From Longimicrobiales bacterium (lineage in GTDB: Bacteria > Gemmatimonadota > Gemmatimonadetes > Longimicrobiales > Gaopeijiaceae), in contig OZ220732.1 in NCBI GenBank assembly GCA_965116905.1, positions 2,528,001 through 2,592,000 on the forward strand: 64,000 nucleotides of DNA. The letters run 5' to 3'. This document shows positions 1 through 13,213 of the stretch, one piece after another. Positions within the stretch are counted from its first letter, which is position 1; every line of letters starts with the position of its first letter. A model generated the notes under the pieces. It worked only from the letters and a program-made list of their open reading frames with translations, did not search any database and was not told where the DNA came from. The position numbers were made by a program, and so were the translations under genes.

Positions 1-1034
1 TGAAGTGGGAGAAGGCGGGTCGTTGGCGGTTCTCGAAGGAGCGTGCCATCACCACCAAGACCCTCACCGACTTCAGTCGCTACAAGCAGTGGCTTCATTT
101 CGCCTTCCAACTCATGGAGGAGGGAGCGGACCCACCCCCGCCCCCCCCACCGGGCGACGAGCCCTACACTCGTGAAGCCGCTCTGAACGATCTCTTCCTC
201 CCTGGAGCAGAGTTCGACCGTATCATCGACGCCCTGGAAAGGAAGAAGAACGTCGTCCTCGAAGGCCCTCCCGGTGTCGGCAAGACCTTCATAGCCAAGC
301 GGCTGGCCTACCGGGTCATCGGATACAAGGCTCCCGAGAGGGTGCGGATGATCCAGTTCCACCAGAGCTACGCGTACGAGGATTTCATCCAGGGGTACCG
401 GCCGACTGACGATGGGGGATTCGAGCTGCGCGACGGAGTGTTCCATACGTTCTGCCGGGAGGCGGCGGCGAATCCCAAAGACCGGTACGTCTTCATCATC
501 GACGAGGTCAACCGCGGGAATCTCAGCAAGATCTTCGGTGAGCTGATGATGCTCATCGAGGCCGACAAACGGGGTGCCGAATACGCCGTTCCGCTGACGT
601 ATTCGCCCGGTTCGGAGCCGTTCCACGTTCCCCCGAACCTCTACCTAATCGGGATGATGAACACGGCCGACCGGTCATTGGCGATGGTGGACTACGCGCT
701 ACGTCGGCGGTTCGCGTTCATCCGCCTTCAGCCTGCTTTCGCGACCGACCAATTCAGCGATTTCCTCAACGCGGCAGAAGTGGAGGAGAATCTCGTCAAC
801 AAAATCGTCGACCGGCTGTCGGCTCTGAACGAACGAATCCGTGCGGATCGTAAGAACCTCGGGCCGGGCTTCGAGATCGGACACAGCTTCTTCTGCCCGG
901 GCGACGACGACGAGGGACTCGATGATTCCTGGTACGAGGCGATCGTCCGGCGTGAGATCGAGCCTCTGCTGCGGGAATACTGGTTCGACCGTCCCGAGCA
1001 CGTGGAGGAGCAAATCCGAGTACTACTGGCGTGA
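1..1034 (+). CDS. mcrB: McrB-family AAA+ GTPase, type IV restriction (5'-truncated by window edge)
   Basis: Walker A GPPGVGKT, Walker B FIIDEVNRG, McrB signature MNTADRS, QFHQSYAYEDF. The frame is open from base 3 (KWEKAGRW...KTLTDF), so the true start is upstream of the window. Stop overlaps the mcrC start (GTGA). Confidence 0.95.
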   Translation, partial: KWEKAGRWRFSKERAITTKTLTDFSRYKQWLHFAFQLMEEGADPPPPPPPGDEPYTREAALNDLFLPGAEFDRIIDALERKKNVVLEGPPGVGKTFIAKRLAYRVIGYKAPERVRMIQFHQSYAYEDFIQGYRPTDDGGFELRDGVFHTFCREAAANPKDRYVFIIDEVNRGNLSKIFGELMMLIEADKRGAEYAVPLTYSPGSEPFHVPPNLYLIGMMNTADRSLAMVDYALRRRFAFIRLQPAFATDQFSDFLNAAEVEENLVNKIVDRLSALNERIRADRKNLGPGFEIGHSFFCPGDDDEGLDDSWYEAIVRREIEPLLREYWFDRPEHVEEQIRVLLA

Positions 1035-2092
1035 AGATTCCGGTCAGGAACATCTACTATCTCCTCTGCTACGCTTGGGACCACGTGAGGGAAGGGGAGA
1101 CGGTCGATGTCGAGTCCGAGCAGTTTGGGGGGCTGGTCGACCTGTTCGCCAAGGTGTTGAACGAGGGCGCGTCGCGGCTCGTTTCGCGCGGCCTCGATCG
1201 TGACTACCTCGTCGTCCACGAGGATGTCCGGGGCCTCAAGGGAAAGCTCGATTTCGCGACCACGATCAAGAGGAACCTGCTCCTGAACGGCAAGACGCAC
1301 TGCGCCTTCGACGAACTTAGCCATGACGTGCCGCAGAACCAGATCCTCAGAGCGACGCTGCGCGGGCTGGCCTTGGTGCCCGCCCTCGACCCGGCCCTGA
1401 GACGGCATACCGAGCGCCTCTACCGGAAGCTGGACGCCGTCTCCGATGTCCCTCTGACCACGAGTCTGTTCCGCACCGTCCGCGTCCACCGGAACAACCG
1501 GTTCTACAGCTTCCTCCTGCACCTCTGCCGCATCATCCACGAGAATCTCCTGGTGAATCAGGAGCAGGGGACGGCGGAGTTCAACGACTTCCGCGAGGAC
1601 GAACACCAGATGGGGCTCCTCTTCCAGGAGTTCGTGAGGACCTTCTGTGAGCGCGAGACAGACTACAAGGTGAGCGCCCCGAAGATCGACTGGTTCGGTG
1701 CGGAGGCGAGCGAGACCGATCTGCGCCACCTGCCCCGCATGCAGACGGACATCGTGCTGCGGTCGCCGACGCGCACGATCATCGTGGACACCAAGTTCTA
1801 CAAGAACCCGCTGGACACGCGGTGGGAGGGCGAGCGGGTGAACGCGGGGAACCTGTACCAGGTCTTCTCCTATGTGACGAACTGGACAGCGAGGGCAGAG
1901 GCGGGCGAGCCCGAACCGGAAGGGTGGTTGCTGTATGCGGCGGTGGACGGCGGATTCGACTACCGGTTCGAGTTGATGGAGCGGCCGGTGCGGGTGTGCT
2001 CGGTGGATCTGGGGCAGAAGTGGAGGGGGATTGAGCGGGACTTGAGGGAGTTGGTGGGAAGCGCGGCGCCGATGCCGCTTCATCAGGTGTAG
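1031..2092 (+). CDS. mcrC: McrC-family PD-(D/E)xK nuclease subunit
   Basis: N-terminal IPVRNIYYLLCYAW, catalytic TDIVL...IVDTKFY, LYQVFSY; coupled to mcrB. Confidence 0.93.
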   Translation: MKIPVRNIYYLLCYAWDHVREGETVDVESEQFGGLVDLFAKVLNEGASRLVSRGLDRDYLVVHEDVRGLKGKLDFATTIKRNLLLNGKTHCAFDELSHDVPQNQILRATLRGLALVPALDPALRRHTERLYRKLDAVSDVPLTTSLFRTVRVHRNNRFYSFLLHLCRIIHENLLVNQEQGTAEFNDFREDEHQMGLLFQEFVRTFCERETDYKVSAPKIDWFGAEASETDLRHLPRMQTDIVLRSPTRTIIVDTKFYKNPLDTRWEGERVNAGNLYQVFSYVTNWTARAEAGEPEPEGWLLYAAVDGGFDYRFELMERPVRVCSVDLGQKWRGIERDLRELVGSAAPMPLHQV

Positions 2093-2198
2093 CGAGTCGC
2101 GTTAGCGTTTTCTGTGTGTGGGCCGTCGCTACTGCGAGCGACGTAGGCGTTCCGCACCCGGGGGGTGAGCAGGAGGGCGTGCCCCCACTGGTCCCTCG

Positions 2199-3101
2199 TC
2201 ACCCCTTGAATACATGCTCCCGATGATACTCTAGAAACCGCCGATGTGGCCGGTAGGTTTCTTGCTCCGGTAGCCGCAACTGCCCGTTCGGGTTCACCAG
2301 CGACAGTACGTTGCCGGGGATCGCGTTCCTCTTGAAGAGCAGGGTGTAGTCGTCGTCGACTGAGATCAGGCCGCGGTCGAACATCCAGTGAAAGGTGGAG
2401 CTCAGCGCGACGCCATTCCGGAGGCTGTCCGGTCCGTTGGCGTGCACGGGCCGGATGTGCGCGGCTTGGGCCTCGGCGCGCCCGCCGCCGTTGATGATCC
2501 GAAGACCGCTGATCGCGCAGGTGTTGTCGTAGGCCCGCTTGATCCCCGTGGCGAACACCCGGTCGCGAAAAGGTCGTCGTGAGAGTCGCTCGATGATGGG
2601 CCGGTCCGTCAGCTCCAGCCCACCGGGATCGGTGTGAATCCCTTCGCGGATACCGAATCGTTCGCGCCGGGCGGTCGCGGTCTCGAACCCGGCCGCCAGG
2701 ATCAGACTGTACTCGGCATCTGGCAGGAGCCGGACCGAACGCCCGAAAGCGCCCTTGTTCACCGAACCGTCTTCCTTCTGGAGTCCGCTCTCGTAAAAGA
2801 AGCCGTCCTCGCGGAAGGGCACTGGACGGTCGAATTCCAGATAGTCCGCGACATAGGCGTAGTAGTGATCGGTTCTCAGCGGATCGGCATCGATGCTCAC
2901 GATCCGGGCCGTCGCGAAATAAGACTGACGCCCTCCGCTACTGGAAAGGTGGGAGCTGGAGCGGCGAGGCTCGTAGTAGACGATCCAGTTGCCGACCGCG
3001 GCCCGCGCCGCGTTCAGGTAGGTGCGCGGGAAGTGGTATCGCTCCTCGGGAAGGTCGTCGTAGGACGGGTCAACTTTGGTGGTCAGGACGGCTTTGGGCA
3101 T
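2199..3101 (-). CDS. HNH endonuclease with N-terminal putative PUA/EVE-like reader domain
   Basis: C-terminal CAISG...AQAAHIRP...NGVALSSTFHWMFD (HNH_2 type). N-terminal YDDLPEERYHFP...IVYYEPRR...YFATARI. Start moved to ATG 3101 (MPKAVLTTK) because the ORF-track extension overlaps the upstream gene. Confidence 0.85.
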   Translation of the reverse strand: MPKAVLTTKVDPSYDDLPEERYHFPRTYLNAARAAVGNWIVYYEPRRSSSHLSSSGGRQSYFATARIVSIDADPLRTDHYYAYVADYLEFDRPVPFREDGFFYESGLQKEDGSVNKGAFGRSVRLLPDAEYSLILAAGFETATARRERFGIREGIHTDPGGLELTDRPIIERLSRRPFRDRVFATGIKRAYDNTCAISGLRIINGGGRAEAQAAHIRPVHANGPDSLRNGVALSSTFHWMFDRGLISVDDDYTLLFKRNAIPGNVLSLVNPNGQLRLPEQETYRPHRRFLEYHREHVFKG

Positions 3102-3108
3102 GGGTGGT

Positions 3109-3633
3109 TCAATACCCCCACGGGACCGGAATGCCCGGCTCCACCGGGCCGACCAGGTCGTCTGCGATGTCGGTCTCGACCAGGTTCCGGCAGATCCAGA
3201 TCCGGCACTTGGGAGAGTCGGTGCCGTTGCCCGGTTGAAAGACGAAGATCGCGAGTGCGCCGGTGTTTTCGGGATCGCGCAGCGGGGATGAGGTGCCGAG
3301 ATTGGTGATGCGTATCTGGGCCTGTGGTCTGCCCAAGAGGCCGTCGCCGATGTGCGGAACGCCCCGGACGCGGTGCTCCTGGACTCCGTGAGAGTCGATC
3401 TCGATGTCGAATTCGACGGTGGACGTTCCGCCATCCTCATCTAGCGACGAGAACGCGGGTTTGAGGAGGTCTCTCGGAACGCAGGGGCCAGGCTGCCGCG
3501 TTTGGGTGGCCGAGGTCTCGGTGCCGGAGAGGAACTTGGCGTGCCAGATCCAGCTGGCCCCGATCCAACGCGCGATCCAGTCCCTGAGTCGGTCGGTTTC
3601 GATCGGGCTGTATTGGTGGGGTGTTGTTTCCAT
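3109..3633 (-). CDS. Stand-alone EcoRII N-terminal (B3-like) DNA-binding domain protein
   Basis: AKFLSGTETSAT, RITNLGTSSPLRDPENTGALAIFVF and IWICRN...GPVEPG follow the EcoRII N-domain motifs as I recall them (KRLSANDTGAT, RITRWG..SPLQDPENTGAL, IWVC...GEVIPG). Ends at 174 aa with no catalytic domain. Confidence 0.82.
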   Translation of the reverse strand: METTPHQYSPIETDRLRDWIARWIGASWIWHAKFLSGTETSATQTRQPGPCVPRDLLKPAFSSLDEDGGTSTVEFDIEIDSHGVQEHRVRGVPHIGDGLLGRPQAQIRITNLGTSSPLRDPENTGALAIFVFQPGNGTDSPKCRIWICRNLVETDIADDLVGPVEPGIPVPWGY

Positions 3634-3814
3634 TGCGAGGCCTCCCGGGTCGGCTCTGCGTTAACCTGGTGTCGGTCGACGGGAGCGCAACAGTGTCCGG
3701 GTATCCAACTGTCGTTCGGCAGCCGAGATGTGGGAGCGGCCACCCGTGGGACGATTGTTGGTGCTTGGTGGAACTGCCATTTGACCTAACCGTGACGCCA
3801 GCCCAGGATTACGC

Positions 3815-4762
3815 ATGAGATATGATGATCCTGGAACGGCCGCCAGTGGGACCATCTTCGACCGGCGGTACGACGCGCAGGTTCGGACCGCGACCTTCGA
3901 ATGGCTGAATAGCCGGCGGTCTGAGCTGGGAGATGTCTTGCCCCGTACCGTGCTCGCGCGGGGCTTCGAGTTCCGGGGGAAGAGAATCTATGTCATAGGC
4001 CCGCAGGGGATCTTCAAGCCTGCTGCGCTACGAATCCCCTTGTCAATTACGACAAGCCCCAAGGGGCCCTACCGGGATGAATTCGGCCCGGATGGTTTCC
4101 TCCGATACCGATACCGAGAGACGGGCCCTGACCATCGTGACAACGTTGGCTTGCGAGAGGCGATGCTGAATGCCTTGCCGCTGGTGTACTTCCATGGCAT
4201 TCTCCCCGGGAGATATGTGGCGGTCTGGCCAGTGTTTGTGGTTGCAGATTCGCGGAGCGGACGAGCTTTCTCCATCGCGGTGGACGACCCGGCTCATTTG
4301 GGCCTCTCCGGCGGGGTCGGAGAGGGGGCTCGGGTACGGCGCGAGTACGTGACGGTGCAGACGCGTCGCCGGCTTCACCAACAGGCCTTCCGTGAGCGGG
4401 TTTTGAGAGCTTATCAGCACCAATGCACGCTTTGCCAGCTCCGGCGTGACGAATTGCTCGACGCGGCCCATATCGTCCCGGATTCCGAGCCGGAGGGAGT
4501 GGCTAGCGTGAACAACGGTCTGGCACTATGCCGGTTGCACCACGCTGCCTTTGACCGGTTCTTCGTAGGCGTACGACCAAACTATGTCATCGAGGTTCGC
4601 CAGGACGTGATGGCTGAGCGTGATGGTCCGACTCTGCGACACGCGATCCAAGGACTGAATGGGCGCCGCATCGTCCTGCCCAGGCGGAAGGTCAACTACC
4701 CGGATCCCGAGGCGCTGTCGAAGCGCTATGAGCGGTTTCGGGAGAAGGCGAGGGCCTCGTAG
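3815..4762 (+). CDS. HNH endonuclease with N-terminal putative SRA-like domain
   Basis: CTLC...LDAAHIVP...NGLALCRLHHAAFD. N-terminal GPQGIFKP...LRYRYR...DNVGLREAM...PLVYF is SRA-like in pattern (inference). Confidence 0.85.
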   Translation: MRYDDPGTAASGTIFDRRYDAQVRTATFEWLNSRRSELGDVLPRTVLARGFEFRGKRIYVIGPQGIFKPAALRIPLSITTSPKGPYRDEFGPDGFLRYRYRETGPDHRDNVGLREAMLNALPLVYFHGILPGRYVAVWPVFVVADSRSGRAFSIAVDDPAHLGLSGGVGEGARVRREYVTVQTRRRLHQQAFRERVLRAYQHQCTLCQLRRDELLDAAHIVPDSEPEGVASVNNGLALCRLHHAAFDRFFVGVRPNYVIEVRQDVMAERDGPTLRHAIQGLNGRRIVLPRRKVNYPDPEALSKRYERFREKARAS

Positions 4763-4912
4763 CATTGGCTCTTTGGTCGAGGGCTGACCGTAGGCAAGAA
4801 GCGTCGGTTGGGAGGAGCGTGAGAGTACGAACCTTCCAGCCGTAGTGCAGCGTGCGTAGCTGGAGTGTCACAATCCGACTCGGTCCGGTACGGATTAGAC
4901 CATACGACCGAT

Positions 4913-6412
4913 CTAATCGTCGTCCGGCGCCTCATAATCATAGAGCCCCGTCGGCCCTCGCGACCCGCGTGGCAACGGCGCTATGTCCTCCGGGAGGATG
5001 GGATCCGGTATCTCTATGGCGGGATTCGACAATCCAAGGGCAGGCAGCAGGAAGACAATGTCGGTGTCAGTCGGCGGCACCGACGATGATCCCCTCGCTC
5101 CGAGTTGCTTCGCGGTGGATCCAATCGATGTGGAAGTCCCCGGAACAAGCAAGTCGACATAGCGCCCGAAGTGCGGCCGCGGGTGCTGCCCGAATCGGCG
5201 GCGGAAACCGTCAAGTTGCGATCCACCCCCGACCAGAATCACACGAACATCTTTCCAGCGGTCGGTGTTCTTCTCCTTCTTGTAGGCGTCACCGAAGCTC
5301 GCGCTGTATGCGTCGAAACTGCGTGCAGCCACCTCGTCCGCGGCCTGGTCCAAGTCACTTGGATCGAGGGGCCGGCACCCCTCGCCCATGCGCACTTGTC
5401 GGTCAGCATGTAGCTCGGGCTTTGCCTCCCGAACCACCGGAAACAGAAGAGCCCTGTCGGTGTCCGACACCGCCAAGATGTCGAGTAGTCTATCGTCGAT
5501 ATCGTCGCACCCGACAAGAGCAGTCTTGGCTGAAAAGAAGAAGACGCAGTCTTCTTCCTCGGAACGGCGCAATTTGAACCACCCCAGGTCCGTCGTTCCC
5601 GCGCCGATGTCCACGATCGCGGTGTATCTTCGACTGTTGGGTACAGTGGACGCTAAAGCCGCCTCGCCCCCCTTAACGACTGCCGACGATTCGGGGACGA
5701 GCTCCCACCGCTTGTGCTCCCGGTCTGGCGAGCCGGTGCTTTCCCTGTTGAGGATTTCAATCCAGCGGTGCCAGAGAGCAGGATAGTCGTCTAGTTGCAG
5801 GTCGTCCGTCTCTGCGAAGTCCACGGCGGCGTCGAGAGCCGTCTGGTATCCGCGCTGGATTGGACCACCGTCCAGCTGCGACACCGGGATATCGAGATTG
5901 TATCGGAACTCGGAATTCGCGCCGTACTCTTCCATCGCCAACTCGCGGACTTGACCGAGGACCGCACTGAGATACACAGCGACAAGAAAGTGAGGATGTG
6001 TGCCGAGCGCCTGGGGAACCGGAGGCACTTCGGATGCGGCCAGGTGGCGCGGGTTCCCGTTGGTGGTAATCAGTGTTCGCTTGAGCGAGCGAAACACGGT
6101 GTCCGTGTCATGCTTCTCTGCCTCCACACCGAAGAGAAAACGAGAGTCGGTGAGGGCGATGGTAGACGGGAAGCTGAACCGTGAGAAGCCGGGCCGATCG
6201 GTGCCGAAATCAACGGCCCACGCCGGACGGCCCTTATCCAGCGAGCGGACGACCACTTTCGTCCCCGAGGTCCCGAAGTCGAGACCGATGAAGACGAACG
6301 CCACCGGCGCTACGGTCGCAGGAGGAGTCGCTTCCCCCTCGATCGAAGCGTGGGCAGTGCCACGCGGACGCCCGATGCGGAAGAGGCGGAGTAAGGAGCG
6401 CAGCCAGCTCAT
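4913..6412 (-). CDS. Hsp70/actin-fold (ASKHA) ATPase with no recognisable DnaK substrate-binding domain
   Basis: Phosphate-1 IGLDFGTSGTK, connect VPESSA, phosphate-2 IVDIGAGTTD, adenosine VILVGGGSQL. ATG overlaps the SNF2 stop (ATGA, 6409-6412). Confidence 0.85.
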   Translation of the reverse strand: MSWLRSLLRLFRIGRPRGTAHASIEGEATPPATVAPVAFVFIGLDFGTSGTKVVVRSLDKGRPAWAVDFGTDRPGFSRFSFPSTIALTDSRFLFGVEAEKHDTDTVFRSLKRTLITTNGNPRHLAASEVPPVPQALGTHPHFLVAVYLSAVLGQVRELAMEEYGANSEFRYNLDIPVSQLDGGPIQRGYQTALDAAVDFAETDDLQLDDYPALWHRWIEILNRESTGSPDREHKRWELVPESSAVVKGGEAALASTVPNSRRYTAIVDIGAGTTDLGWFKLRRSEEEDCVFFFSAKTALVGCDDIDDRLLDILAVSDTDRALLFPVVREAKPELHADRQVRMGEGCRPLDPSDLDQAADEVAARSFDAYSASFGDAYKKEKNTDRWKDVRVILVGGGSQLDGFRRRFGQHPRPHFGRYVDLLVPGTSTSIGSTAKQLGARGSSSVPPTDTDIVFLLPALGLSNPAIEIPDPILPEDIAPLPRGSRGPTGLYDYEAPDDD

Positions 6413-9400
6413 CCTGACCCTCCAATCTGAACCACCCCAGCACCTACGAGTTGAGGTTCCATGCTGATTCTCCTGTCTCCCTCGAGTTCACTTCGACGAG
6501 CCTCATACTCCTGCTTCATGTTTCGAATCTGACCGCGGTAGAGGCGAATAATCCTCCGATCCCGCCCCGTCGATTCCGCTTTCGCAAGCCGCTCCTGAAC
6601 CCTCCGCCGGTGGGTACGGTACCGTTTCTCAAGACTGGCGAGGCGCGTCTGTACGATCGCGTGGTTACGGTCTTCGGCGCGCTGCCGAATACCCGCAACG
6701 CGATCCTCAAACGCGTCGTAGCCATGTTCCAGCGCATCGTCGAGACTCCGTGAATCCGAAGGCTCCCGGCGGCCGGTCGTTCGTCCGTCTCGAATAAGCT
6801 CCCCAAGAAGCAGTGAGCAGGCCCTTTCGTCCGGCACCGAGAATCCGTCAGAGCGGGACGACAGCCCAACGAAGATGGCGTCCAGTCGCTTGCGCTCGGC
6901 TCCCGCCTCGATGCGTACGGCGAACAATAGAAAGAGATATGCACCGGCAGCGGCGATCTGTGATTGGTGGAGTCGGAGCCGCGATACCGAGTGGAGTTGG
7001 TCACGGTTGTCGCGATAATACTGAACCGCCAACTGTACCACGGGATGGTGGGCGGCGAGAAACTCAGTATCGGGATGGTCGAAGGCGACTTGGGAATCGA
7101 ACGTAACCGGAACACGTCTGGACAGCGATTTCTGAAGGAATCGCTGCCGTGCAGCGCTGGGCGGCAACTGCCGCGTGGCCATGTCGAACTCGTGGCTAAC
7201 ACGAAGGGTACGTACACCCTTGCGCCGAGCGGAGCCCAGTTCTACTTGAGGGTGTGCCCGTTCCAGGAAGCCCAATACGAAGGCCTCGCGATCGGACGCA
7301 CCGAGAAGTTCACCGCCACGCATGATCCGGTTCAACTGGTCCTCGAAGTAGCCGTCTCCGCTGACAAGTCTGTCGGCTTCAGCCTCCAGCTTCTCGAGTT
7401 CGCGGCGCCGGTTTTCGATTGCGCGAGCGCTTTGTTCGATTCGTTTGCTCTCTTCCTCGGGCGTAAGACGGCTTGAAAGCAGCTGCCGTGTGAGGCGTCC
7501 GATCTCTTCGCCGACAATAGCCTCAAGATCGCCAAGTGTTCGCTCAAAGATGCCGATCCGGCGGTAGAGGCGATTGAGGACCCGATCCTCGATCGTGTCT
7601 TCGAGAGTAAAGTTAAAGATCAGGATTCGATCAGACTCCTGGCCTAGGCGGTCGACACGTCCGATCCTCTGTTCGACTCGCATCGGGTTCCAGGGCAGGT
7701 CATAGTTGATAATGATGTGGCAGAACTGAAAATCGAGGCCCTCACTGCCCACTTCGGAGGAGAGCAGGAGCCGGACATCCGGATCCTCACGGAATCGTCT
7801 CATCCGCTTTCCACGGTCGTCGCGGTCTGGGCGGCGAGGATCACTCTTGATGCCGCCGTGAATCAACTCACACGGTATTCCGTCCCGGTCTAGGCGATCC
7901 TTCAGGTAGTGCAGGGTGGCCTTGTAGTAGGCAAAAAGAATAATCTTCCTGCCAGGTTCCTCGTCATCGAGGCGCACGAGTATGCGGAGAAGCTGATCGT
8001 ATTTCGTGTCTGTATCTCCTAGGCCACGCGCGGCGTCTACCACCCTTTGACTAATCTTGATTGCAACGGATTTGGGAATCTCTTCAAGGTCGTGGACCTC
8101 GGCGTCAACCTCGTCTTCGAGCTTCCATGTCGCCCGTCCTATGAACCGGTCCCGGGCTGCCGGCATGCAGGATGCCGCTTGCCGCTGCGCTGCCATTATT
8201 GCGAAATATTTGATCGCTCCTGTGTCGTTGGGTGCGTTGTCGCGGACGAATTCTGTTACAGCATCGTAGAATTCACCCTCCGCTGGAGTCAGCGCAACAG
8301 AGACAACGCTCGGGGTTCGCATGGTTGCGTCGGCGAAGACGTCGCGTTTCTTTGTGCGGGAAAAGACATGGCTGAGAAGACTCAACTCCTCCAGATCGTG
8401 CTGCAGGTCCGCAGCCCATGCGTGTCCGCTGTCGTTGACGAACTCGGGAGGCTTGTCCAGTTCCCGCTGGACTCGCTCGTAGATCGGATTACCACCGAAG
8501 AAGCTCAGTCGCCCCCCCATCCCGAGCCTCTCGATGCGGTTCCGAATCTCATCGATGGGTGGTGGGATGGCGCGGGCCAGGCGCTGTGCCTCCACGACCG
8601 GTTCATTCGCGCGAAGACGGTCCTCGAAGATCTCGAAGTCATCGAACTCGGAGTCATCGAGTAGCCGGAAGAGGTTGAACAGGTTCTCCTCGCCGAGCTG
8701 GATGGGTGTGGCTGTTAGAAGGAGCACAGCGTGAGCGTTCTGGGCCAGAGCCCGAATGGTCCGGTGGCTCAGGGTCTGCCGATTGCGAAGATGGTGGGCC
8801 TCGTCGACGATCAGAAGGTCGAGTGGAGGAGGGGTCACATTCATGAGGTCAAGGTGGGCCTCATTGCGTACGGCCTGGAGCGAGATGATGTCCCGCGCCT
8901 CGCTGAGGTCCCCCTGTTGGGCTAGTCGCTGAAGCTGTTCCCTGAACTCCGGTGCCCCGATGATGCTGAATTCCTCGTCGAACCTATGCCACATCTCCTC
9001 GCGCCACTTCAAGCACAGCGCCGCAGGGCATACGATGAGCACGCGCCGCAGGGCTCGACGAGCCCGTTGCTCGATCAGCACCAAGCCTGCTTCGATCGTC
9101 TTACCCAAGCCCACTTCGTCGGCAATGAGAAGGCGCTGGTCGGGAGAGTCAAGGAACTTGAGGAGAGGCTTGTACTGGTGCGGATAGAAGGCAGTGCGCG
9201 ACCCCTGCAAGGAGTACAAGGTGTTGTCGAGTGGTGTGTCAAGCTTGTGGAAGGTGACAAGGCGTAGGAAGTCGTCCTTGTCACCAAAAGCGCCCCTGAG
9301 GAGGAGTTGGTCTGGTGATACGTCGGCCTTGAACCGAGTGAGATCCGCTTCGTGCACGACGATCAATCCGCCGGCGTGGAGCCGGATGCGATACCAGTAG

Positions 9401-9513
9401 GCACCGTTGCGCAGCTTAGGCGCGCGTATGACCTCTCCCACCTTGGAGCGGTCGCTCCGTAGCTGAACGCGATCGTCCGTTTCGAAGATGGGTCGTGGGA
9501 TTAGCGAGTCCAT
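6409..9513 (-). CDS. SNF2/RapA-like superfamily-2 helicase
   Basis: LIADEVGLGKT, DEAH, LLTATP, SEVGSEGLDFQ, YDLPWNPMRVEQRIGRVDR; long helical C-terminus. ATG at 9513 (alternative TTG 9519). Confidence 0.93.
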   Translation of the reverse strand: MDSLIPRPIFETDDRVQLRSDRSKVGEVIRAPKLRNGAYWYRIRLHAGGLIVVHEADLTRFKADVSPDQLLLRGAFGDKDDFLRLVTFHKLDTPLDNTLYSLQGSRTAFYPHQYKPLLKFLDSPDQRLLIADEVGLGKTIEAGLVLIEQRARRALRRVLIVCPAALCLKWREEMWHRFDEEFSIIGAPEFREQLQRLAQQGDLSEARDIISLQAVRNEAHLDLMNVTPPPLDLLIVDEAHHLRNRQTLSHRTIRALAQNAHAVLLLTATPIQLGEENLFNLFRLLDDSEFDDFEIFEDRLRANEPVVEAQRLARAIPPPIDEIRNRIERLGMGGRLSFFGGNPIYERVQRELDKPPEFVNDSGHAWAADLQHDLEELSLLSHVFSRTKKRDVFADATMRTPSVVSVALTPAEGEFYDAVTEFVRDNAPNDTGAIKYFAIMAAQRQAASCMPAARDRFIGRATWKLEDEVDAEVHDLEEIPKSVAIKISQRVVDAARGLGDTDTKYDQLLRILVRLDDEEPGRKIILFAYYKATLHYLKDRLDRDGIPCELIHGGIKSDPRRPDRDDRGKRMRRFREDPDVRLLLSSEVGSEGLDFQFCHIIINYDLPWNPMRVEQRIGRVDRLGQESDRILIFNFTLEDTIEDRVLNRLYRRIGIFERTLGDLEAIVGEEIGRLTRQLLSSRLTPEEESKRIEQSARAIENRRRELEKLEAEADRLVSGDGYFEDQLNRIMRGGELLGASDREAFVLGFLERAHPQVELGSARRKGVRTLRVSHEFDMATRQLPPSAARQRFLQKSLSRRVPVTFDSQVAFDHPDTEFLAAHHPVVQLAVQYYRDNRDQLHSVSRLRLHQSQIAAAGAYLFLLFAVRIEAGAERKRLDAIFVGLSSRSDGFSVPDERACSLLLGELIRDGRTTGRREPSDSRSLDDALEHGYDAFEDRVAGIRQRAEDRNHAIVQTRLASLEKRYRTHRRRVQERLAKAESTGRDRRIIRLYRGQIRNMKQEYEARRSELEGDRRISMEPQLVGAGVVQIGGSG

Positions 9514-9552
9514 ATGCAATTGCAGGGCGGGTTCGTCAATGTGGATGAACGT

Positions 9553-10587
9553 CTAGGCCAGTTTTTCGAGGAGCTTCCGCAGTCTACCAATCTTGTTTCT
9601 GTTCTCCGGAGATAAGTCGTCGGGGCTGAAATGCATGATCTCGTTCCGCAAGTCCTTGACGTCGTGCAGCAACCTCACAAACACCCGCCGATCAATGGTC
9701 AGCTCGAGTCGCTGCCAATTCACATCCACCTCCACCAAGCGGACGATTTCACCAAAAGTCAAATCTGATGCCTCGTTGATCGTCCGTTCTTGATCGCGCG
9801 GATCCCTTGCTGCCGCAATCTCCTCCGTGGAGAACGCCTCATCGATGAGTAGGCGCAGTCGGTCCTCAATCTCTTGAAGTAGCAGAAAGGGAGCGGCCAA
9901 CTCATGGTACTTGAGACTGAGATCGCTGGTTGTCACGATACCCGTCAGTCGCTCGTCCCTGCCGACCACGAGCACCACCTCGTCGCGGACGATCTTCTCG
10001 ACGGCGTCGAGAAGAGGAGTATTGAGGCCAACCGTCGAGTAGTCTCTCTCAATGCAATCCCGTACAAACCGACAGTTGTCGTCTCCCTTCGTGGTTCTGG
10101 CGATGCCGATCGAACGCCAACTGATCATGCCGTCAATTCGACGCTTGTCTTGGGTGACCGGCAGCTGAGAGTAGTTGTGGATCATCATCTCGGTAACTGC
10201 GGCTGACAGGGTGCTATCCCGTGTCACGGTAACGACCCCGCTGGTTGCCGCAGGAAGCATGCCCACATACAACGCTGGATCTCTGGCTTCCGACTTGGTG
10301 GTACCATTGCCGGTTGGTTGATGGTCAGTCTTGCGAGAAGGGTCGTCATCATCTGTGCGTGTAGCAGACATGGGCAAGAATCGTACGAACGCGTCGATGT
10401 CGATAGTGGAGAAATCAGGATCGGTCGCGAGACGGAGTTCTTGAAGGGCGCTGCGGACGGTCCAGACCACCGAAGATCGGCGACGCTTATGTCCAAACCA
10501 GGACAGCAGAGTTCTTACCTTGGCCCGGCGGGGCTTCCCTGCATGGACTGACCGGGCCACGTCTCGCAGGGGATCGGGAGTTGACAC
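9553..10587 (-). CDS. CBS-pair protein with C-terminal HEPN (RxxxxH) domain
   Basis: CBS repeats (VTRDSTLSAAVTEMMIHNYSQLPV; VLVVGRDERLTGIVTTSDL), then helical domain EIEDRLR...LTFGE...LRNEIMHF. Start uncertain; GTG 10587 chosen over 10719, which overlaps the upstream gene. Confidence 0.8.
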   Translation of the reverse strand: MSTPDPLRDVARSVHAGKPRRAKVRTLLSWFGHKRRRSSVVWTVRSALQELRLATDPDFSTIDIDAFVRFLPMSATRTDDDDPSRKTDHQPTGNGTTKSEARDPALYVGMLPAATSGVVTVTRDSTLSAAVTEMMIHNYSQLPVTQDKRRIDGMISWRSIGIARTTKGDDNCRFVRDCIERDYSTVGLNTPLLDAVEKIVRDEVVLVVGRDERLTGIVTTSDLSLKYHELAAPFLLLQEIEDRLRLLIDEAFSTEEIAAARDPRDQERTINEASDLTFGEIVRLVEVDVNWQRLELTIDRRVFVRLLHDVKDLRNEIMHFSPDDLSPENRNKIGRLRKLLEKLA

Positions 10588-10688
10588 TGGCGGTTGACAA
10601 GGTGGAGGGAATCCGTCACTGAGAGACTGAGGGTATGGGAAATGGTCACATTCGGCAACGGACAGGTCCGGTGACCCGTGGTTGCTCC

Positions 10689-11618
10689 TCACCCCCGAAA
10701 CACCTCCACCCTGTGCCACGCCACCATCCCCCGATCCGGCGCGTCCTTCGCCCTCACCGGCGCCCGAATCGCCCTCCCCCTCAACCCCACCAACCGCCTA
10801 GCAGCCCGACTCCTCCCTCGCACCCCGCCAGACACCAGAATCCGAAACCCACCCCCCTTCCCCTCCAGCCCCATCGCCCCAAGGTCCAGCGCCTTGTGAT
10901 GCACGGAGCACAGCGCCAAGCCGTTGGGAACCACGTCCCGCCCATCGTGAGAATGCCACCGGATGTGCGCGGCCTCCAGCCCTAGCAAGCGGTCGCCAAA
11001 GCGGATGTCGTACTCGCACACGGCGCATCGTTCGTCGTACGCCTCAAGGACCGCCCTGCGGAAACGGGGATCCCGCGGCGTGTACTCCCTGACCTTCCTG
11101 CCCCTTCTGGGCATGGGTTCGTCGAGTCCGTCGGAGGAAGGCCCCGCCGCCAGTCGCACGGCGTCCAGGATGTCCTGATGGATCGATAGCGGAAAGTGTT
11201 CGGACAGGATCTGGTGCGCAGCGCGCGACACGAGTTCCGGGTGGTGCCACAGCAGGTCGTGGACATCCTGCCGGAATCCGCCCGTGATCCCGAGGCGCCT
11301 TGCTTCGCTGACGCGGATGTCTGCCGCCCGTCCCGTGGACAGTTGTGATTCCTCTGGTATCTCCCACAGGCGATCGTCGTTTCGCAATCTGCCAAACGGG
11401 TAGTGGACGCGGGGCGGCGTATCCGGTCGCCCGAACTCCTCCCACAGGGCCTTGAACCGCTCGTCCGCGGTCTCATATGGGATCAGCCGACCCTCCGGCC
11501 CCAAGCCGACACGGCCGAGCGCCAACAGCAGCATCAGCGGCTTGTGAGGTGCCCGACCGCCATGGCTTCGATCGATCCTGACGCCAGCCAACCGCGCAAG
11601 GAATTGTTCGGGAGTCAC
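10689..11618 (-). CDS. SBD-HNH phosphorothioate-DNA-dependent restriction endonuclease
   Basis: Sulfur-binding-domain motifs RAPHKPLMLLLALG and HYPFGRLRND; HNH CAVC...LEAAHIRW...NGLALCSVHHKALD. Confidence 0.85.
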   Translation of the reverse strand: MTPEQFLARLAGVRIDRSHGGRAPHKPLMLLLALGRVGLGPEGRLIPYETADERFKALWEEFGRPDTPPRVHYPFGRLRNDDRLWEIPEESQLSTGRAADIRVSEARRLGITGGFRQDVHDLLWHHPELVSRAAHQILSEHFPLSIHQDILDAVRLAAGPSSDGLDEPMPRRGRKVREYTPRDPRFRRAVLEAYDERCAVCEYDIRFGDRLLGLEAAHIRWHSHDGRDVVPNGLALCSVHHKALDLGAMGLEGKGGGFRILVSGGVRGRSRAARRLVGLRGRAIRAPVRAKDAPDRGMVAWHRVEVFRG

Positions 11619-11688: not shown

Positions 11689-11717
11689 ATTGTAAACTTT
11701 AGTTGTCATTATGTCAA
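11689..11717 (-). promoter_or_regulatory. sigma70-type promoter for the SBD-HNH/CBS-HEPN/SNF2/ATPase run
   Basis: Minus strand TTGACA (11717-11712), 17 nt, TACAAT (11694-11689). Overlapped by palindrome TGTCAA-N6-TTGACA (11712-11729). Confidence 0.8.
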
Positions 11718-11758: not shown

Positions 11759-11790
11759 TTGACTCGCTCGTGACATATGTGTACTATGTA
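11759..11790 (+). promoter_or_regulatory. sigma70-type promoter of the XRE gene with overlapping inverted repeat
   Basis: TTGACT (11759-11764), 17 nt, TACTAT (11782-11787) with extended -10 TG; ACATA-N7-TATGT overlaps the -10. Confidence 0.7.
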
Positions 11791-11826
11791 CAACACACTA
11801 CCCACACAATCCACCCATCCCAACCC

Positions 11827-12180
11827 ATGACCCACTTCGGCCCCACCGTCCGCCAGATCCGCGAGACCCTTCGCGCATCCGACCGCCGCTTCTCCCTGCG
11901 GCAGGTCGCCCACCGCGTTGGAGTGGAGCCCGCGTACCTGAGCAAGATCGAACGCGGCGTCGCTGCTCCGCCCTCGGAGGCCACGACCGTGCGCCTGGCG
12001 AAGGAGCTGGACGAGGATCCGGACGTGTTTCTGGCCCTTGCCGGAAAGGTCTCGAGCGACCTGCAGGAGATCATTCGGAAGAGACCGCAGCTCTTCGCGC
12101 AGCTCATCCGGGAGCTGAAGGAGGCGCCCGACGAAGCCGTGTTCCGGGTCGTGCGGGTCGTGCGGGAGGGAGATTGGTAA
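11827..12180 (+). CDS. XRE-family HTH regulator
   Basis: FGPTVRQIRE...SLRQVAHRVGVEPAYLSKIERG...LAKELD; ATG 11827. Confidence 0.9.
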   Translation: MTHFGPTVRQIRETLRASDRRFSLRQVAHRVGVEPAYLSKIERGVAAPPSEATTVRLAKELDEDPDVFLALAGKVSSDLQEIIRKRPQLFAQLIRELKEAPDEAVFRVVRVVREGDW

Positions 12181-12208
12181 GTCACTGAACAGAGGAGAAT
12201 CGCAGCCC

Positions 12209-13213
12209 ATGATCACGCTTGAGAGAGACCGGATGAGCTTCCGGTTCCCCGAAGTCCACCCCCAGGCCCGGTGCAGCGTCGAGTTCCAGCGCACCCTGCG
12301 GATTCCGGACGACGACCGGTCCTACCCGCTTCCTCCGGGACTCGGCTGCTTTCCACTCCGCCATGTCGACGACTTCGCGGACCGCCTCGCCGGGAAGACC
12401 TTGCACCGGGGTGGCGTGGTGATGCCCATGCATCAGGCCGAAGCCATGTGGCTGAACCTCGATCCCGGGTTTTCCGAATACCCCTGTGCGGTCAAGGTGG
12501 CTGCCGGGAAGGTGTGCGCGGTCAGCGGCGAGCCCTGGTCCGACGACCTCAACGCCAATCCGCAGAACTACCTGGTGGTCCCCGACCAGCCGTGGCTGGA
12601 TGGGTACTGCGTGGGAGAGGGCATCATCCGCCAGTTCGTCGCCATGCCGCTCGGCGAAGGATACACCGCGGAGGAGCAGCTGACCGGCGCCGCGGAGCAC
12701 GGCGGCCTGCAGATATCCGTCTGCCCCATGAAGCGCGAGGTGTACGAGAAGCTGTTCGGGGACCGGTTTCGGGCGATGGAGCACATGGTCTGCTACAGCC
12801 CGGCCCCAGCCCCTCACGAAATGGGCTTGGCCCCCGGTGGCCGGATGCGGCAGGAAATCTACGACGACGAATACGGCTTGGACGCGTGGGACGAGGAGCA
12901 CACGAGCCGTTGCTTCGTGACCATCGCCAACTCCAGGCAGTGGCTGGCGATCACCGGCGAGCACCCGCCCACAATCCCGCCGACGGCGCGCCACTACACC
13001 GACGCCGGACTACCCTGGTTCGACTATTACGATGGGGACCGGAAGGCGATATCGGGCTCGGAGTCGCTTGCGGGGCTGAAGAGTGTGGCTGAGACCGGGG
13101 TGGAGAAGGGTGAAGTGCCACTTCCGGAGAACGACCCGCTTGACGTGCCCGAGGTCCTGCGCATTGCGCCGGACAGAGAGCGCGTCGTCCGTGAGTATTC
13201 TGCCGAGGGTTGA
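12209..13213 (+). CDS. Conserved hypothetical protein (FQRTLRIPDD...LPPGLG family)
   Basis: AGGAG RBS; motifs FQRTLRIPDD, NYLVVPDQPWLDG, IRQFVAMPLG.GYT.E.Q, MGLAPGG, YTDAGLPWF; function unknown. Confidence 0.8.
   Translation: MITLERDRMSFRFPEVHPQARCSVEFQRTLRIPDDDRSYPLPPGLGCFPLRHVDDFADRLAGKTLHRGGVVMPMHQAEAMWLNLDPGFSEYPCAVKVAAGKVCAVSGEPWSDDLNANPQNYLVVPDQPWLDGYCVGEGIIRQFVAMPLGEGYTAEEQLTGAAEHGGLQISVCPMKREVYEKLFGDRFRAMEHMVCYSPAPAPHEMGLAPGGRMRQEIYDDEYGLDAWDEEHTSRCFVTIANSRQWLAITGEHPPTIPPTARHYTDAGLPWFDYYDGDRKAISGSESLAGLKSVAETGVEKGEVPLPENDPLDVPEVLRIAPDRERVVREYSAEG

Follow-up and report, generated by a model that had tools for sequence, protein, structure and literature searches.

A DS-11 family CBS-HEPN gene co-inherited with an unnamed SNF2 helicase and Hsp70-like ATPase pair that often lies amid defence genes

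The window, which is the whole 64,000-nucleotide stretch of Longimicrobiales DNA analysed here, contains three minus-strand ORFs of the same orientation and with no internal stop codon, encoding a CBS-HEPN protein, a SNF2 helicase and an Hsp70-like ATPase (the trio). The trio and the associated features are located as follows.

4913..6412, minus strand: Hsp70-like ATPase, 499 aa; ATGA overlap with the helicase stop
6368..6412, minus strand: predicted basic amphipathic helix at the ATPase N-terminus; hydrophobic moment 0.94, low-confidence linker after it
6409..9513, minus strand: SNF2 helicase, 1034 aa; ATG start, as in genomes G279 and G014
9553..10587, minus strand: CBS-HEPN (DS-11); GTG start; length agrees with the 344-346 aa of the nearest homologues
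9631..9648, minus strand: HEPN catalytic motif RNEIMH (R314-H319), nearly invariant in 29 homologues
10689..11618, minus strand: phosphorothioated-DNA-binding HNH restriction endonuclease, lying upstream in the same orientation; 252 bits on NF045808 (cut-off 180)
11689..11717, minus strand: sigma-70-like promoter match (11/12), upstream of the HNH restriction gene

The initial annotation described three co-oriented genes with a gap of about 40 bp followed by an ATGA overlap. This layout was confirmed, with 39 bp between the CBS-HEPN stop and the helicase ATG, and ATGA at 6412. The helicase reading frame stays open up to a TTG at 9519. The join of the trio is not an assembly artefact, because positions 3608-10876 recur with 0 differences in a contig of 7,269 bp from a separate study (run X2). 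Pfam, NCBIfam and Foldseek bore out the domain calls of CBS-HEPN, SNF2 and Hsp70/actin-fold ATPase, and the catalytic motifs that had been read as intact (HEPN RNEIMH, SF2 helicase motifs, ASKHA loops) are all present. Comparison with relatives gave dN/dS values of 0.09-0.27 in all three genes. The three genes are real, with motifs preserved and purifying selection acting on them.

A GC scan agreed with the earlier impression that the trio is less GC-rich (0.593, genome 0.677), and equally low GC was found in just 0.2% of 5.7-kb segments of the genome. The suggested defence-island context also held, with the phosphorothioated-DNA-binding HNH gene on the upstream side and McrBC and two HNH genes on the other flank. 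The window McrB reads NTAD, the canonical NxxD, and lies on the opposite strand, 3.9 kb from the trio. The upstream HNH gene is context and is not conserved with the trio, other genes occupying this place in G279. The promoter match at 11689..11717 could give one transcript of HNH, DS-11, helicase and ATPase; it is only a lead, because three promoter-like sites were found and shuffled sequences gave 1.4 ± 1.2. No tRNA gene was present in the window or in nine loci, so no integration site was found.

The CBS-HEPN protein (344 aa) contains a small N-terminal domain, a CBS pair (two Pfam CBS stretches) and a HEPN RNase domain. It scored 335.4 bits on NCBIfam NF053863 (DS11_antiphage, cut-off 260), and an alignment of 339 columns with an E. 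coli DS-11 homologue showed 35% identity. PMC13092281 describes DS-11 (DefensePredictor) as a one-protein CBS-HEPN anti-phage system which defends alone in E. coli, and whose Y157A, R330A and H335A mutants lose defence. The counterparts of these residues in the window protein are Y139, R314 and H319; the published numbering was counted on the supplement sequence of PMC13092281, and checked by alignment to the E. coli homologue. Fusions of CBS and HEPN had been noted before DS-11 (PMC3710099). Judged by family score and conserved residues, the window CBS-HEPN gene belongs to DS-11, already published as an anti-phage system of one gene. The term undescribed, which the initial annotation applied to the trio as a candidate system, is therefore not supported for this gene. 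The window DS-11 is likely an adenine-nucleotide-gated RNase; the adenine ligand that activates DS-11 is posed as an open question in PMC13092281.

The helicase matched the Pfam domains SNF2-rel_dom and Helicase_C, and contains the motifs DEVGLGKT (134), DEAH (239), TATP (269), SEGLD (592) and EQRIGRVDR (616), numbered from the TTG. It scored 587 bits over residues 18-1009 on the PADLOC DrmD model PDLC02623, 373 bits on the NCBIfam DrmD model (below its cut-off of 610), and 255.9 bits on the NCBIfam RapA model NF003426 (cut-off 576, not reached). The top Foldseek match of the structure model (pLDDT 87.5) was RapA (6bog, E 1.4e-37). The predicted domain order is an N-terminal beta domain, the SNF2 core, and C-terminal alpha+beta domains that include a long helical hairpin, in agreement with the BrxHII layout described in PMC12839542. 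By comparison with BrxHII and RapA, the N-terminal beta domain is predicted to be Tudor-like. No nuclease domain was detected in the helicase by Pfam, structure model or Foldseek, nor in its ATPase partner. Scores and model together indicate that the helicase is a RapA/BrxHII/DrmD-like SNF2 ATPase.

The ATPase had no Pfam match. It contains the motifs DFGTSGTK (45), PESS (240), DIGAGTTD (268) and GGGSQL (395), and D45, G47, T48, K52, K111, D268, G270, G395 and G396 are invariant in 90 homologues. Its structure model (pLDDT 83) matched DnaK in Foldseek (E 5e-15), and superposed on DnaK with Z 31.0 and an rmsd of 3.0 Å over 331 residues at about 17% identity. The model shows an ASKHA nucleotide-binding domain (NBD) at residues 38 to about 470 of 499, followed by a short coil alone, and lacks a C-terminal substrate-binding domain (SBD). 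The family comprises 557 cluster representatives at E≤1e-30, and its members gave weak, generic matches only in Pfam, NCBIfam and PADLOC; in the ESM Atlas, the ATPase clusters were all unnamed or Hsp70-labelled. As modelled, the ATPase is an unnamed Hsp70-like (ASKHA) protein with the DnaK nucleotide-binding fold and no substrate-binding domain.

The N-terminal helix of the ATPase (residues 2-10) is present in the model, at pLDDT <50. The N-terminus was more amphipathic than its own shuffles (p≤0.05) in 27 of 90 ATPase family members; for the controls, this was the case in 6/99 helicases and 3/29 DS-11 proteins. The helix is predicted to be a membrane or partner anchor. In MreB, an N-terminal amphipathic helix has a membrane-anchor role, and by analogy the ATPase helix may act similarly.

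Gene order was read at the DNA level. All 23 loci scoring at least 130 bits on the Hsp70-like profile, the window among them, adjoin a helicase gene; one of these, L112, was picked up via its helicase. Among five weaker matches (94-109 bits), L129 adjoins a helicase and L036 stops at a contig edge, while L005, L006 and L010 (94-105 bits) have no helicase adjacent. Matches below 75 bits were treated as other ASKHA proteins and not counted. The gene order of the pair is reversed in L110, and at L111 a plasmid helicase stands beside a different partner gene. In addition, 38 of 52 Hsp70-like contigs equal a helicase contig in length, and helicase and ATPase distances are correlated (rho 0.84, 32 loci, permutation p 0.001). 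The pairing of motor and ATPase is thus strict at the higher profile scores.

The pair loci span several phyla, an archaeon and plasmids, with a patchy spread (10/301 genomes of the family; elsewhere 6/301 and 2/351). Their neighbours include type I restriction-modification (R-M) genes at L002, L030 and L031, Zorya- and Hhe/ProA-like genes at L033/L034, a DarG-like gene at L004 and Hachiman at L112, and at L011 the pair is inserted between brxC and pglX of BREX-1. No recognised defence neighbours were found at L022 and L093. A metagenome scan gave one locus, L030, whose sequence stops within the helicase. Viral contigs contained four weak ATPase-profile matches (46-58 bits), which do not belong to the Hsp70-like family, and no DS-11. 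A plasmid search with the window ATPase gave no match, and a search with a distant family member gave weak matches. The SNF2 helicase and the Hsp70-like ATPase form an unnamed pair, often amid defence genes, and the pair is predicted to act against invading DNA.

Models of known systems were compared with the 10 window proteins scanned. DISARM class 1 comprises drmA, drmB, drmC and drmMI beside DrmD; helicase cross-hits aside, none of these four genes was found. For Zorya type I, ZorD scored 26 bits against 1500 and ZorA, ZorB and ZorC were unmatched, so that the absence of DISARM and Zorya partners stated in the initial annotation stands in both PADLOC and NCBIfam. BREX type 3 and ARMADA were rejected, as the BrxHII models matched in pieces (165-223 bits) and no methyltransferase was found. 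CoCoNuT type III was rejected as well, since the window McrB has NxxD rather than NxD and is on the other strand, and the ATPase contains no SBD or HEAT region. The PADLOC candidate PDC-M61 was likewise rejected: the window ATPase matches PDC-M61B over 51 residues only (E 7.5e-5), the other PDC-M61 models had no match among the 10 proteins, a genome-wide search gave no match at E≤0.001, and PDC-M61B was not found in 151 phylum genomes at a threshold that had no positive control. There is no curated family model for the pair, and it was not found in the literature searched, a search whose reach left out most subscription papers. The word Hsp70 was not found in the main text of PMC13092281, 10.1101/2024.01.29.577857, 10.1101/2025.09.30.679545, PMC12458937, PMC12839542 and PMC13069673.

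We examined the association of DS-11 with the pair. Among the 301 family genomes, the ATPase is present in 10 and DS-11 in 14, and both are present only in the window genome (G000) and G279. These two genomes carry the same trio, with adjacency read at the DNA level, and the DS-11-helicase gap in G279 is shorter than 39 bp. A third trio has the consecutive accessions MCY4648659/60/61. Protein searches delimited a clade (helicases at ≥76% identity plus cluster members, ATPases at ≥57%, DS-11 at ≥60%; members added from 10 helicase, 15 DS-11 and 5 ATPase clusters), in which co-location was inferred mostly from equal length of contigs rather than from read DNA. Within this clade, 31 of 63 helicase contigs have a DS-11-clade contig of equal length (24/47 at ≥10 kb and 10/20 at ≥100 kb), several of the matched contigs being near-copies; kin are not independent. 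Twenty contig sizes carry all three genes. Several matched contigs are merely 6-12 kb, so in these the genes of the 5.7-kb trio are necessarily close. For more distant DS-11 contigs, 0/84 are equal in length to helicase contigs.

The matched DS-11 proteins form one clade (SH-aLRT 99 in a quick tree), which most helicase sub-lineages carry. Distances are correlated between helicase and DS-11 (rho 0.73, 28 loci, permutation p 0.001) and between ATPase and DS-11 (rho 0.61, 17 loci, permutation p 0.001); among kin, such correlations show shared history, not interaction. Between G000 and G279, dS is 1.26 in DS-11 and 1.26 in the helicase. Chance adjacency of the trio was rejected on the basis of the equal-size contigs, the consecutive accessions and the co-divergence (rho 0.73). 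Because a single DS-11 clade is found across most helicase sub-lineages, the simplest history would be a single joining in an ancestor, after which the genes were inherited together for a long time. In most sub-lineages the trio has been kept to a dS of about 1.3, while the flanking HNH and McrBC genes have not been kept in place. Retention of the trio seems to outlast that of loose island neighbours here, which favours some functional link. The source names of the relatives (Candidatus Palauibacter, Gemmatimonadetes, and a MAG labelled Gammaproteobacteria) suggest that the trio clade is mostly of Gemmatimonadota, with transfer possible.

DS-11 is nevertheless separable from the pair. The helicases of G009 and G014 are 80-81% identical to that of the window and DS-11 is absent there; similarity ends at the helicase start, and no DS-11 remnant was found upstream of the helicase in either genome. 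Read DNA revealed DS-11 in 2 of 23 pair loci, with L030 additionally ending within the helicase, and all 18 loci outside the clade lack it. Within the clade, 10 of 20 contigs of ≥100 kb have no DS-11 match, and about half of the clade overall lacks DS-11 as judged by equal-length contigs, where a missing match may also reflect the end of a contig or a cluster member that was not listed. The long contigs without DS-11 force at least six changes on the helicase tree. Conversely, 15 of 41 DS-11-clade contigs of ≥10 kb match neither a helicase nor an ATPase contig, and 12 of 14 DS-11-positive family genomes have no Hsp70-like match, their DS-11 loci lying in unrelated contexts. A transposase insertion of 1.1 kb, bearing terminal inverted repeats, interrupts the ATPase gene of G279, where DS-11 is intact. 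This speaks against the ATPase being an antitoxin that DS-11 requires.

An obligate three-gene system was rejected, given G009 and G014, the 18/18 outside loci and the half of the clade without DS-11. The reading of the locus as one three-gene system therefore fails if it is meant as obligate, with close relatives lacking DS-11 and most DS-11 genomes lacking the ATPase. Co-occurrence of the three families, proposed as a check in the initial annotation, holds in one clade, where the trio recurs and co-diverges, and not at the 18 outside loci. DS-11 is optional in the trio, and the trio still exceeds chance; its co-inheritance is accompanied by repeated loss of DS-11.

We consider it somewhat probable that the locus holds two separable modules, likely in a single operon and long co-inherited in one clade, which provide layered rather than obligately coupled defence. 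The SNF2 protein would translocate on double-stranded DNA, and strip or remodel protein-DNA complexes like RapA and the DrmD/BrxHII-type motors. Since it has no nuclease, we propose that it may stall foreign DNA or pass it to neighbouring nucleases. The Hsp70-like NBD would serve as an ATP/ADP switch for loading or licensing the motor, and its amphipathic helix may tether it to the membrane at the site of phage DNA entry. Dimers of DS-11 would sense an adenine derivative via the CBS pair and, as a second line of defence, cleave RNA. In this clade, an ancestor may have gained DS-11 directly upstream of the helicase gene, where joint transcription and joint transfer would then have kept it.

Functional coupling of the three proteins within the clade would also explain the long retention of the trio. 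The motor and the Hsp70-like switch would detect phage DNA and control the CBS-gated HEPN RNase, a reading that we regard as doubtful. The route, which we find similarly hard to favour, could be ATP burning, release of an adenine derivative, or contact, with the RNase switched on or held off till infection. A specific and equally doubtful form has a membrane-tethered SNF2 motor/Hsp70-NBD switch sensing incoming phage DNA, and making or signalling the ligand that opens the DS-11 RNase. Consistent with coupling are the occurrence of DS-11 in most helicase sub-lineages, the single trio DS-11 clade (SH-aLRT 99) and its co-divergence, and the short DS-11-helicase gap (39 bp in G000, less in G279). 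The ligand question posed in PMC13092281 would fit too, both partners being ATPases, and precedents are ietHAS (PMC13069673) and the predicted Type III CoCoNuTs (PMC10542128). However, coupling sits poorly with the at least six forced changes on the helicase tree, and with the 15/41 DS-11-clade contigs of ≥10 kb without helicase or ATPase match. DS-11 is missing from 18/18 outside loci, which showed no replacement effector common to them; DS-11 is intact in G279 despite the split ATPase, and E. coli DS-11 works alone.

Two further explanations leave DS-11 as a passenger. The pair, having no nuclease, could be an accessory of an adjacent restriction system (type I or IV R-M, or BREX), which we think improbable; it is just as improbable in the form in which the pair remodels protected or modified phage DNA for neighbouring nucleases. 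HsdR/HsdM, phosphorothioate-HNH and McrB-like genes do adjoin the pair, which also occurs inside BREX-1, and related SNF2 motors serve DISARM, BREX and ARMADA (PMC12458937, PMC12839542). The neighbouring systems vary by locus, however, with none at L022 and L093, and according to 10.1101/2024.01.29.577857 it is independent systems that are typically found embedded in BREX or R-M operons. Least probable, in our judgement very improbable, is a non-defensive pair, a mobile RapA-like module for transcription recycling or DNA maintenance that gathers in islands, with DS-11 hitchhiking. RapA is indeed the top structural match, and a few loci have no defence neighbours, but this explanation is at odds with the patchy spread and low-GC island of the pair, its frequent defence neighbours and BREX embedding, and a RapA model score far under the cut-off.

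The pair is widespread and a compact candidate for a new anti-phage module, with a chaperone-type ATPase that lacks its chaperone half. A clade in which DS-11 has long stood beside two ATPases, with natural variants with and without it, offers a test of ATP-turnover gating of a CBS-HEPN RNase. If the three-part system were true, it would reveal the trigger of DS-11, and give an Hsp70-type ATPase an anti-phage role.

Comparison with known systems places the trio as follows. DrmD (class 1 DISARM), BrxHII (BREX type 3) and ArmA (ARMADA) resemble the window helicase as RapA-like SNF2 motors of about 1030 aa with the same predicted domain order. In contrast to their systems, the window has no methyltransferase, YprA-like helicase or other core partners; the partner is an Hsp70-like NBD, and the helicase is below the NCBIfam DrmD cut-off. 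The ATPase shares its predicted fold and its phosphate and adenosine loops with the DnaK/Hsp70 NBD, and differs in its low identity (about 17%), the missing substrate-binding domain, the N-terminal amphipathic helix and the adjacent SNF2 gene. The likeness to PDC-M61B is weak and at the ASKHA level (86/90 ATPase members match, best E 7.9e-16).

Type III CoCoNuT, as presented in PMC10542128, is a predicted defence operon that joins Hsp70-like proteins with HEPN RNases. Its CnuD resembles the window protein in being an Hsp70-like ATPase encoded with HEPN RNases; CnuD combines NBD/SBD with HEAT repeats, its ATPase site is degenerate and its partners are NxD McrB GTPases, whereas the window ATPase has the NBD only, intact loops and a SNF2 partner. 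PMC13069673 describes ietHAS (Liu-DS4) as a stand-alone system that acquired a DrmD-like SNF2 helicase, which then became essential. Both loci thus place a stand-alone defence system beside a DrmD-like SNF2 helicase. In ietHAS, however, the system is a protease/ATPase toxin-antitoxin, and CBS-HEPN here; ietHAS has no Hsp70-like gene, and its helicase was shown to be essential.

Finally, the window CBS-HEPN protein resembles published DS-11 in its CBS pair and HEPN domain, in a score over the family cut-off, and in keeping the equivalents of Y157, R330 and H335. DS-11 was published as a single protein, whereas the window clade is distinct and usually co-inherited with the SNF2 motor and the Hsp70-like ATPase. 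DS-11 itself is already known; what the analysis adds is the clade-wide co-inheritance of DS-11 with the unnamed pair, and the predicted amphipathic helix of the ATPase.

The genes around the trio of DS-11 (the CBS-HEPN RNase), SNF2 helicase and Hsp70-like ATPase in the window are as follows.

Window 1-4762 and L001:18791-20000 (a locus read as DNA): McrB, McrC and two HNH genes, in that order
Window 10689-11618, minus strand: predicted phosphorothioate-DNA-binding HNH nuclease
Window 11770-13213, plus strand: HTH regulator and 334-aa protein, divergent from the defence operon

McrB has 747 aa and starts 1.2 kb ahead of the window edge, and the McrB, McrC and HNH genes lie within a lower-GC region extending from roughly -12 kb to +17 kb. 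The 334-aa protein had no match in Pfam, NCBIfam or PADLOC. A relative is present near the helicase-ATPase pair in L064, and homologs of the phosphorothioate-DNA-binding HNH nuclease occur near the pair, at varying positions, in L030, L035, L062, L064 and L065.

Alignment of the Hsp70-like family (A4) showed a conserved N-terminal basic amphipathic helix followed by a disordered linker (window 6368-6412, minus strand). A hydrophobic moment of at least 0.8 was found in 16 of the 63 members with long N-termini, whereas none of the 14 with short N-termini reached this value. The ATPase gene of G279, the second genome with the same trio, is interrupted by a transposase (359 aa, L062:8300-9441) with 24-nt terminal inverted repeats, which we take to be IS630-like.

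Gene order and partners vary among the loci. Among L110:5464-10931, L129:735-6483 and L007:346-6481 are variants in which the Hsp70-like gene precedes the helicase, and one locus has Hsp70-like genes on both sides of the helicase. On a Rhizobium plasmid (L111:6830-13170), a 1041-aa hypothetical protein follows a related helicase, in place of the Hsp70-like gene.

One genome (G647; L096, L104-L108) contains six DS-11-like matches, several of them partial. Directly downstream of a distant DS-11 in genome G374 (L086:7137-12123) is a different SNF2-type helicase of 1130 aa, and a helicase similar to it is divergent from DS-11 in L089.

The SNF2/Hsp70-like pair is also present within BREX-1 operons, between brxC and pglX, in L011:2672-14940, as assigned by NCBIfam, and likewise in L128:2593-14764, as judged from similar ORF starts.
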